Shown piece by piece: positions 564 to 1,452 of a DNA stretch of 64,000 bases (position 1 is the first letter of the stretch; each line of letters starts with the position of its first letter). Made by a program: the position numbers and the translations under genes. The DNA is taken from sequence record SRR20825010_2222. One strand, 5' to 3'. Below the pieces are notes generated by a model. It saw nothing but the letters and a program-made list of their open reading frames with translations. It was not told the origin of the DNA and ran no database searches.

Positions 564-904
564 ACCTATTAATTTTAAGTTATTACAATCTATTATTTAA
601 CGCTTCGATCCATGTTGACCTAGCTTATCCATCACAATTCCTTTTTGTAAGGGAATTTGGAAATCCTATTTAATATATATGTGATGAATAATTAAGCACA
701 CCAACCTCTAAGATATTAAATAGGTAATAATAATCCATTAAAATTCACACAATTCCTGCAAATCCACATTCATTTCACACAATCTGAAGTTTTATTAAAA
801 AAAGTATATAAAATTAAAATTAATATAACCAACTGATTGTCAATTAAATACATTCTAAATCCTTGTGAAATTCAAAGCAACAATGTTAAATATTGCTTAA
901 AACG

Positions 905-951
905 GTACTATTTTATACATAGTACTGTAACAATTCTATCCATCTGTCGTC
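905..951 (+). promoter_or_regulatory. Putative ECF-sigma promoter with adjacent inverted-repeat operator
   Basis: GTACTAT-N7-ATAGTAC (905-925) abuts TGTAAC (926-931)-N16-CGTC (948-951), 41 nt upstream of ATG 993. Confidence 0.55.
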
Positions 952-992
952 TTCTAGTAGTAAATCAATTAATCACTATTAAACTAAATATC

Positions 993-1079
993 ATGGAAAC
1001 TCTAAACAAACATCTGGTAAAACAAACAATTGAATCTTCAAAAAGTAGAATTTGGAATAGTAAGAGAAGATACAATTAG
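993..1079 (+). CDS. 28-aa basic micropeptide 1 (METLNKHLVKQTIESSKSRIWNSKRRYN)
   Basis: A-rich leader before the ATG; paralog at 1142-1228 with 21/28 identity and synonymous divergence. Confidence 0.75.
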   Translation: METLNKHLVKQTIESSKSRIWNSKRRYN

Positions 1080-1141
1080 CAGTCCAAAATCAATCAAAAA
1101 AAACAAAAACTGAATTTAAACATTAATTAAAAATCAACATC

Positions 1142-1228
1142 ATGGAAACAGTTAACAAACATTTCGTAAAGCAAACAATTGAAAACTCTAAAAGCAACAT
1201 TTGGAACACCAAGAGGCGTTTCAGGTAA
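1142..1228 (+). CDS. 28-aa basic micropeptide 2 (METVNKHFVKQTIENSKSNIWNTKRRFR)
   Basis: Translated by hand, absent from the ORF track; same length and motif as peptide 1. Confidence 0.75.
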   Translation: METVNKHFVKQTIENSKSNIWNTKRRFR

Positions 1229-1251
1229 TAAAAAAACTTAAAACAGTAAAC

Positions 1252-1383
1252 ATGAAATCATTCATTCACAAATCACAATCAGAATCAACAAATTTTCAGT
1301 TGACCGGGGAAAGTATTCTAATGGTAAATTTTAAAAGTATCAAGAAAAACCGTTGGGCCGAGCGCAGAATCTATTTAAATTAA
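1252..1383 (+). CDS. 43-aa basic micropeptide 3 (MKSFIHKSQ...KKNRWAERRIYLN)
   Basis: A-rich leader; C-terminal K-x3-W-x2-R-R-x-Y resembles peptides 1 and 2; followed by a terminator. Confidence 0.6.
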   Translation: MKSFIHKSQSESTNFQLTGESILMVNFKSIKKNRWAERRIYLN

Positions 1384-1417: not shown

Positions 1418-1452
1418 AAAAGCAGTTGAAGTGGTATCACCTGCTTTTTTTT
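1418..1452 (+). terminator. Intrinsic terminator after the micropeptide cluster
   Basis: AAAAGCAG..CTGCTTTTTTTT stem with U-tract. Confidence 0.7.

Follow-up and report, generated by a model that had tools for sequence, protein, structure and literature searches.

Two mini-protein families in one flavobacterial operon behind a putative ECF sigma promoter

Several described systems resemble, each in part, the locus considered here. The closest in gene layout is found in Porphyromonas gingivalis, where PG0214-0216 and PG0985-0987 comprise an ECF sigma factor, a hypothetical protein and a DUF4252 protein, the same layout as that of the sigma operon discussed below. According to the passages concerned, anaerobic conditions and H2O2 stress raise the expression of both groups of genes in a mutant strain of P. 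gingivalis from an oxidative-stress study (PMC10101095); PG0985-87 are also entered in a table of the iron-dependent stimulon (PMC10434189). Unlike the present analysis, these passages do not name a regulon, a promoter motif or any mini-protein that would be a target. A literature search on DUF4252 together with sigma factors led, in the excerpts returned, to these P. gingivalis expression tables only, and a search on flavobacterial ECF sigma regulons and small proteins brought up no title or abstract of relevance. No paper was found when three motif strings were searched in full text.

Other comparisons concern the proteins themselves. RMF and SRA of Escherichia coli are ribosome-associated, small, basic and hydrophilic, and are made under an alternative sigma factor or stress programme. 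The mini-proteins described here are like them in size, charge and hydrophilicity, and probably also in being under the control of such a programme; they have no sequence relationship with either protein, and their own association with the ribosome is putative. The ribosomal proteins bTHX and, from Flavobacterium johnsoniae, bL38 are similar in size class, basic charge and lineage restriction, and a study of bL38 illustrates that unrecognised mini ribosomal proteins do exist in Bacteroidia (PMC11851116). In contrast to genes for such proteins, the mini-genes lie outside ribosomal operons, behind a stress-type promoter, and were found in only part of the family Flavobacteriaceae. Identity with bTHX was considered and rejected: neither the three peptides of the locus nor the 21 sequences of a mixed alignment described below match TIGR04560 at E values up to 10, and a genuine bTHX gene lies elsewhere.

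Finally, RiPPs of the streptide KxxxW type (TIGR04080) have in common with the mini-proteins short, precursor-sized peptides and an invariant K-x3-W. They differ in that no maturase was found beside the genes or in the genomes tested here, and in that the mini-proteins are conserved over their full length. What the present analysis adds is the 28-aa family and its distribution, the presence of two families side by side in a single operon, the result that homology of the families to each other could not be demonstrated, and the gene content of a putative regulon.

Layout and coding nature of the locus

The window is the whole stretch of DNA analysed, 64,000 nucleotides from sequence record SRR20825010_2222. 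Near its beginning, three short ORFs lie on the plus strand between two minus-strand genes: an OsmC-family gene (144-563), which borders the mini-gene region, and an EamA-family gene (1517-2482), which is convergent with it. Mini-gene A1 (ORF1, 993..1079, +) encodes a 28-aa basic protein (P0001) and ends in TAG; mini-gene A2 (ORF2, 1142..1228, +), its tandem paralogue, encodes another 28-aa basic protein (P0002) and ends in TAA. Both are members of what is here called family A. The third gene (ORF3, 1252..1383, +) encodes a 43-aa basic protein (P0003) that is assigned to the 37-aa family C.

An earlier sequence-only reading had described these ORFs as an operon of three related basic micropeptides. 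Re-derivation gave positions and translations identical to those it had listed. An alignment bears out 21 identical residues of 28 (75%) between ORF1 and ORF2, and codon reading bears out the seven synonymous differences (act/aca, aaa/aag, tca/tct, agt/agc, aat/aac, aga/agg and aga/cgt) as well as the two different stops. At the DNA level, 981-1066 and 1130-1215 form a direct repeat with 78% identity over 86 nt, while the spacer between ORF1 and ORF2 has no counterpart elsewhere and ranges in length from 44 to 63 nt within the genus. The translations are cationic, as had been stated, and free of hydrophobic stretches; inspection found no transmembrane helix in any of the three, the feature that would mark a type I toxin or a membrane mini-protein.

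Do these ORFs encode proteins, or are they incidental to a non-coding RNA or DNA repeat? The two units of the direct repeat could, taken by themselves, suggest the latter. The pattern of variation among related genomes does not. Comparison of the window with its nearest genome (G001) and relatives, using the NG86 method on the window and 16 loci of the same genus, gave dN/dS values of 0.042 (ORF1), 0.048 (ORF2) and 0.087 (ORF3) at dS of 0.68-1.0. Within the genus, variable sites are distributed over the three codon positions as 5/8/20 in ORF1, 4/5/21 in ORF2 and 14/12/33 in ORF3, so that third positions dominate. For family A across genera, dN/dS is 0.20, and amino-acid identity between genera is 43-50% at the full 28-codon length. 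The proposed frame is open in all 70 unique family-A genes collected from 44 loci, and the remaining five frames are open in 1, 9, 14, 12 and 19 of them; the invariant R26 is encoded by six Arg codons, with both Arg codon boxes in use. An Rfam scan of 560-1560 gave five matches with E values of 0.86-9.3, none of which reached its gathering threshold (the best had 18.6 bits against a threshold of 55).

Third-position variation, low dN/dS and a single open frame are the signature of protein-coding genes and not of an RNA or DNA repeat. The codon-level pattern effectively refutes the non-coding reading, whose remaining probability is negligible. Thus, all three ORFs are protein-coding genes under strong purifying selection, in line with the selection at the protein level that the sequence-only reading had proposed. 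Homologues that keep the frame, whose absence would have counted against that reading, were found in 114 of the 301 genomes sampled from the family, with dN/dS far below 1; conservation of this extent goes well beyond chance.

In alignments of 12 and 41 sequences, M1, K17, W21, N22, R25 and R26 of family A are invariant and T3 and K24 nearly so; the C-terminal module can be written K-x3-W-N-x-K-R-R-[YF]. When the first peptide served as query in a tblastn-type search, 16 of 25 congeneric genomes proved to have the tandem pair, and other genera gave weaker full-length matches. With the profile of the family, the range widens to 113 of the 300 genera sampled within the taxonomic family (the 301-genome sample), and the matches listed almost always span residues 1-27 or 1-28. 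Each genome has 1-11 copies, often 120-150 bp apart, and up to five near-identical copies stand in tandem in one array. At the level of the order, the same profile matched four of the 33 genomes sampled from this family and none of the 218 from 17 other families. Families A and C are spread through many genera of marine Flavobacteriaceae, an ecologically important group.

The family had been predicted to be one that standard gene callers miss, and the database searches agree. A collection of 15 billion proteins, with which the 28-mers were compared by exact look-up only, contains none of five 28-aa sequences; two of the five come from the window and three from other genera. The three window peptides are likewise without a match among Pfam and NCBIfam models, even at E values up to 10; a match to a characterised family, which would have removed the novelty, was looked for in these two collections and none was found. 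Genes of 28 codons are below the size limit of gene callers, yet these are strongly selected in roughly one-third of the genera sampled.

The third gene and the other mini-protein families

Are the three peptides of the operon related to one another? The sequence-only reading had treated them as one family, on the basis of a shared C-terminal pattern, and K-x3-W-x2-R-R-x-Y is indeed present in ORF3. Its claim holds for ORF1 and ORF2, which are clear paralogues, and is not supported for ORF3. When family A (A3) was compared with ORF3-type sequences (A5), hhalign gave a probability of 4% and an E value of 0.0096 over 15 columns, with only the Trp-centred motif in register. By contrast, ORF3-type sequences and family C align with a probability of 96.4% (E 1.4e-9) over 36 columns and their full length, with one 6-residue insertion in ORF3. 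On these profile comparisons, ORF3 is not demonstrably paralogous to family A and is a member of the separate 37-aa family. A higher probability of 69% had come from a mixed alignment of 21 sequences (A2, comprising ORF3-type and B rows) and was lost once that alignment was split.

Family B consists of 43-45-aa ORFs that lie 3' of the A gene or genes in many genera. Its comparisons gave probabilities of 2% (E 0.022) with A and 0.9% (E 0.063) with C, and A against C gave 9% (E 0.0036). The best alignments between families always register the Trp near the C-terminus. The K-x3-W...R..[YF] motif is thus a common theme among the families, judged from their profiles, and common ancestry is not demonstrated.

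The 43-aa ORF3 protein is present, unnamed, in the 15-billion-protein collection, and RefSeq lists a 43-aa neighbour from another genus as a 'hypothetical protein'. The profile of the mixed alignment matches 60 proteins; apart from two apparent misannotations, those that carry a functional name are 'hypothetical protein' of Flavobacteriaceae, and none of the 60 has a Pfam domain. Pfam and NCBIfam assign no family to the 21 sequences, and a search of the ESM Atlas with a 44-aa B protein gave no usable match. An AlphaFold2 model of ORF3 from the 21 sequences is of low confidence (pLDDT 56.7).

Profile searches detected family C in 41 of the 301 genomes, mostly those in which A is lacking. Separate matches to the C profile in the nearest relatives of the window (G001:C1:1793415-1793528, minus strand, E 5.9e-7; G018:C8:63684-63797, plus strand, E 2.5e-7) point to another C-like mini-gene elsewhere in the genomes of this genus.

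A fourth type, D, was seen as the first mini-ORF of some arrays behind the same promoter core (L142, L161, L187, L199 and L214); it has 28-40 aa and a G-[FN]-G-W-[NH] core.

How the families combine was surveyed by means of the promoter core described in the next section, of which at least 120 stretches were found; 80 of these were classified by regular expressions. A genes only lie downstream of the motif at 30 of the 80 loci, A plus B at 10, arrays of 37-aa C genes at 21, C plus D at four, A plus D at three, B only at one and D only at one. Three stretches leave no room downstream, and seven match no pattern, with divergent mini-ORFs in three of them and none in four.

One locus does not follow this arrangement. 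In genome G030 (L027, G030:C1, ~4178427-4178561), a 44-aa ORF ends in K-x3-W-N-N-K-R-R-F, as in A, but GTAAC-N16-CGTC is lacking in front of it. This ORF may link families A and B as an intermediate, with another promoter in control.

The putative promoter, transcript and ECF regulon

The sequence-only reading had given the unit its own candidate promoter and terminator, and candidates for both were found. The predicted promoter (927..952, +) is of the ECF sigma type, with a -35-like element GTAAC(A) at 927-932, a variable 16-nt spacer (932-947) and a -10-like element CGTC(T) at 948-952. It is the single GTAAC-N16-CGTC site in the 64-kb window (927-951), and transcription would be expected to start roughly at 957-962. 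The same motif precedes the first start codon in 44 of 44 A-gene loci; the spacing of 16 nt is invariant and the spacer sequence variable. From the end of the motif to the start codon there are 30-58 nt in most A loci and more in two, where an upstream copy has apparently been lost. Paired elements of the ..AAC / CGT.. type, conserved and spaced at a constant 16-17 nt, are a hallmark of ECF sigma promoters.

Downstream of ORF3, between the operon and the EamA-family gene, a hairpin followed by a T-run resembles an intrinsic terminator (1418..1452, +; arms at ~1418-1429 and 1437-1448). Its fold energy is -16.2 kcal/mol with a z-score of only -1.46, and a consensus terminator scan did not flag it. 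Hairpin, T-run and single promoter site would fit one transcript of three genes. Could the short ORFs be leader peptides, or part of an attenuator? This was rejected, as no structural gene follows on the same strand: the candidate terminator at 1418-1452 comes first and then the convergent gene. The 30 of 80 promoter-core loci with A genes alone were likewise counted against it.

Parts of the stretch are present in six RNA-library runs, four of which were aligned. A metatranscriptome contig covers 980-1393 at a depth of 29; it comes from a relative, and beyond 1393 its sequence is unlike that of the window. A polyA-library contig identical to the window covers 1186-1371 at a depth of 32, and low-depth pieces (2-3) also lie upstream of the predicted transcription start. 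Other parts of the stretch have no cover, which carries no weight in either direction. Assembled RNA contigs do not give strand, ends or level, and DNA is possible in such libraries, so that they amount to a weak hint of operon expression.

Bacteroidota are a phylum without Shine-Dalgarno-led translation. All three genes have an A at -3 (positions 990, 1139 and 1249), as had been noted, and a study of Bacteroidetes describes this as a positive determinant of initiation (PMC6847099). About 25 nt before each A start (965-992 and 1117-1141 in the window; ...ATCAATTAAAAA..CA.CATC-ATG) are conserved within and between genera, and the rest of the spacers is not. This segment is a candidate translation-initiation region for mRNAs that lack a Shine-Dalgarno sequence.

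Which sigma factor might act at the promoter? A genome-wide pattern search in G001 found a second site of the motif, in front of a gene for a 169-aa protein with Sigma70_r2 and r4_2 domains. The sigma gene is followed by that of a 140-aa protein without a Pfam match, a putative anti-sigma factor, and then by two DUF4252 genes (L058/L069, G001:C3:1062200-1066700). The sigma gene was located in 29 of the best 30 loci, and in 28 of these 29 GTAAC-N16-CGT[CT] lies 24-52 nt 5' of its start, so that the system is apparently autoregulated. In many genera the sigma promoter has a further conserved CTAAAATACTTACA-like element about 24 nt upstream of the -35-like block. ECF21 (Das1/EcfO) was considered as the group of this sigma factor and rejected, since the accounts of ECF21 consulted in part describe a different type of anti-sigma factor. 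The main text of the ECF reclassification paper does not contain 'DUF4252'.

The pattern was then counted in five genomes, where TGTAACA-N15-CGTC has 41 sites against seven for a reversed-pattern control. With 33 further sites fetched for a survey of the downstream genes, the ECF sigma operon, a mini-gene array, a 112-aa DUF4870 membrane protein and an ABC ATPase with a TTG start were each found downstream of the motif in all five genomes. A 52-aa Pmp3/YqaE protein follows it in four, and a DUF456 protein, an 82-85-aa tail-anchored protein without a Pfam match and a secreted ankyrin-repeat protein in three each, the last also in G029. Eight other sites are confined to one genome or lie within long open frames. 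At L104-L136, from the five genomes, an extended -10 region recurs: CGTC, then 5-6 nt, then AGTAT.

The motif is thus common to the mini-gene loci, the operon of ECF sigma, anti-sigma and DUF4252 genes, and genes for small membrane proteins, and the mini-gene operon therefore most probably belongs to an ECF stress regulon. Two points speak against the link, which is drawn from motif similarity: promoters of the AAC/CGT type are common to many ECF groups, and orthologues of the sigma factor have a much wider distribution (109 of 121 genomes sampled) than family A does (114 of 301).

Another question is whether a different regulator acts here. Immediately 5' of the -35-like element lies a conserved block (884..926, +) with two TGTTAA-like repeats about 10 nt apart, which ends in ...CATAGTAC. 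At 28 loci outside the genus of the window, a block of this type is conserved between genera, and it may be an activator site, an UP-like element or a second promoter. A 13-nt core together with N16-CGTC was found in at least 120 stretches in a scan of the genomes of 185,579 species; among the matches listed, nearly all are from Flavobacteriaceae, including Maribacter, Arenibacter, Aquimarina, Algibacter, Winogradskyella, Eudoraea, Aequorivita, Jejuia, Gramella, Cellulophaga, Lutibacter and others. The 43-nt block is present at mini-gene promoters and in part at ankyrin promoters, and the sigma promoters lack it. The dominant control may therefore come from a second regulator or promoter. On a further reading, the upstream sequence would be no ECF promoter but a transcription-factor site or a housekeeping-type promoter, and the operon would lie outside the sigma/DUF4252 regulon. 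The conserved TGTTAA repeats upstream of the bipartite motif, the partial sharing of the block with ankyrin genes only, and the distant 44-aa homologue at L027, which lacks the motif, are consistent with this further reading. It is nevertheless a distinctly unlikely explanation: the 16-nt spacing is invariant around a variable spacer in 44 of 44 loci, the same two blocks stand before the sigma gene in 28 of 29, and the excess of 41 sites over seven in the control goes with recurring families of downstream genes.

The operon would accordingly be transcribed from the GTAAC-N16-CGTC promoter at 927-951, as one of the targets of a conserved ECF sigma / anti-sigma / DUF4252 system that apparently regulates itself. 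It has to be asked whether the peptides could act back on this system, by binding the ECF sigma factor or the cytoplasmic part of the anti-sigma factor. The only point in favour of such feedback is that they are apparently the most amplified targets of an autoregulated sigma factor. Since many genomes have the sigma system but yielded no member of A or C, feedback on signalling is regarded as extremely unlikely.

Neighbours and possible functions of the mini-proteins

At 28 loci outside the genus of the window, no neighbour is conserved over the whole range of family A. A secreted 220-aa protein recurs at 18 of the 28 loci, a 3D-domain-like protein at 13, ExbD at 12 and Hsp20 at four; in the window, the neighbours are instead OsmC and EamA.

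Among these neighbours there is also no radical-SAM or other modifying enzyme, and this bears on the idea that the peptides are RiPP precursors, modified and exported, for example with a streptide-like Lys-Trp cross-link, the tandem copies being multiple precursors. The invariant K17 and W21 of family A, the arrays of up to five near-identical copies and the ABC ATPase in the same putative regulon would all suit such a role. On the other hand, TIGR04080 is above its cut-off in none of five genomes, with no match whatever in G001; a leader-cleavage motif is lacking; and conservation extends over the whole peptide, with no division into a leader and a variable core. With no maturase found and no such division, a RiPP role is considered very unlikely.

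What, then, might the mini-proteins do? The proposal favoured here is that they are produced in bulk in an envelope or membrane stress response, which would fit the tandem amplification of the mini-genes. Given the absence of a signal peptide and of a hydrophobic helix, the products would be expected to remain in the cytoplasm, where they might dock stoichiometrically onto an abundant and conserved partner by means of the invariant Trp-plus-basic C-terminal module. Peptides that are polar, basic, free of a hydrophobic helix, conserved over their full length and amplified in tandem argue for a specific stoichiometric interaction with something abundant. As to the partner, a speculative ranking puts the ribosome or RNA ahead of the membrane, at its inner face, or of co-regulated membrane proteins. 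The content of basic residues, ~20%, speaks against the ribosome, since it is lower than that of typical mini ribosomal proteins. Taken jointly with this proposal and with membership of the ECF regulon, the reading of the region as a self-contained operon of three mini-protein genes, two for 28-aa paralogues of family A and one for a 43-aa protein of family C, is held to be probable, with modest confidence.

It is also conceivable that peptides of the same regulon act at the membrane, as peripheral binders of anionic lipids or as modulators of co-regulated membrane proteins, such as the DUF4870, DUF456, Pmp3 and tail-anchored proteins and the ABC transporter. Most of the recurring regulon members are small membrane proteins, a cluster of Trp, Lys/Arg and Tyr is typical of interfacial anchoring, and many known bacterial small proteins modulate membrane proteins. 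However, the 28-mers have no hydrophobic or clearly amphipathic segment, and no single neighbour accompanies the family over its whole range. A function at the membrane is considered unlikely.

More tentatively, A, B, C and the rarer D may form one unrecognised class of tandemly amplified mini-proteins that is the bulk output of an ECF envelope-stress response in marine Flavobacteriaceae and supplies stoichiometric effectors that act on an abundant machine, for example ribosome-silencing or ribosome-protecting factors. The members of this proposed class have in common an N-terminal M-[RK]-[TS] and the Trp-plus-basic C-terminal module. The idea is possible, though less likely than not; if true, the class would be a new kind of stress effector in Bacteroidota.

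Family A, along with the families of 37 and 44 aa that share its promoter core, would be among the prominent targets of a conserved ECF sigma system. Thus, the mini-genes offer a handle on the signals and functions of the sigma/DUF4252 systems of Bacteroidota, and on the contribution of very small proteins to stress physiology in this phylum. The bipartite motif and the list of genes are open to direct testing in genetically tractable marine flavobacteria.

Two metagenome-assembled genomes also carry genes of this kind. A contig of one labelled 'uncultured Alteromonas sp.' (L184) has the flavobacterial promoter core and a family-A gene, and may have been mis-binned. The same operon as in the window is found in a record named Arenibacter sp. 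(L188), in which the first peptide differs by one residue and the second and third are identical to those of the window.
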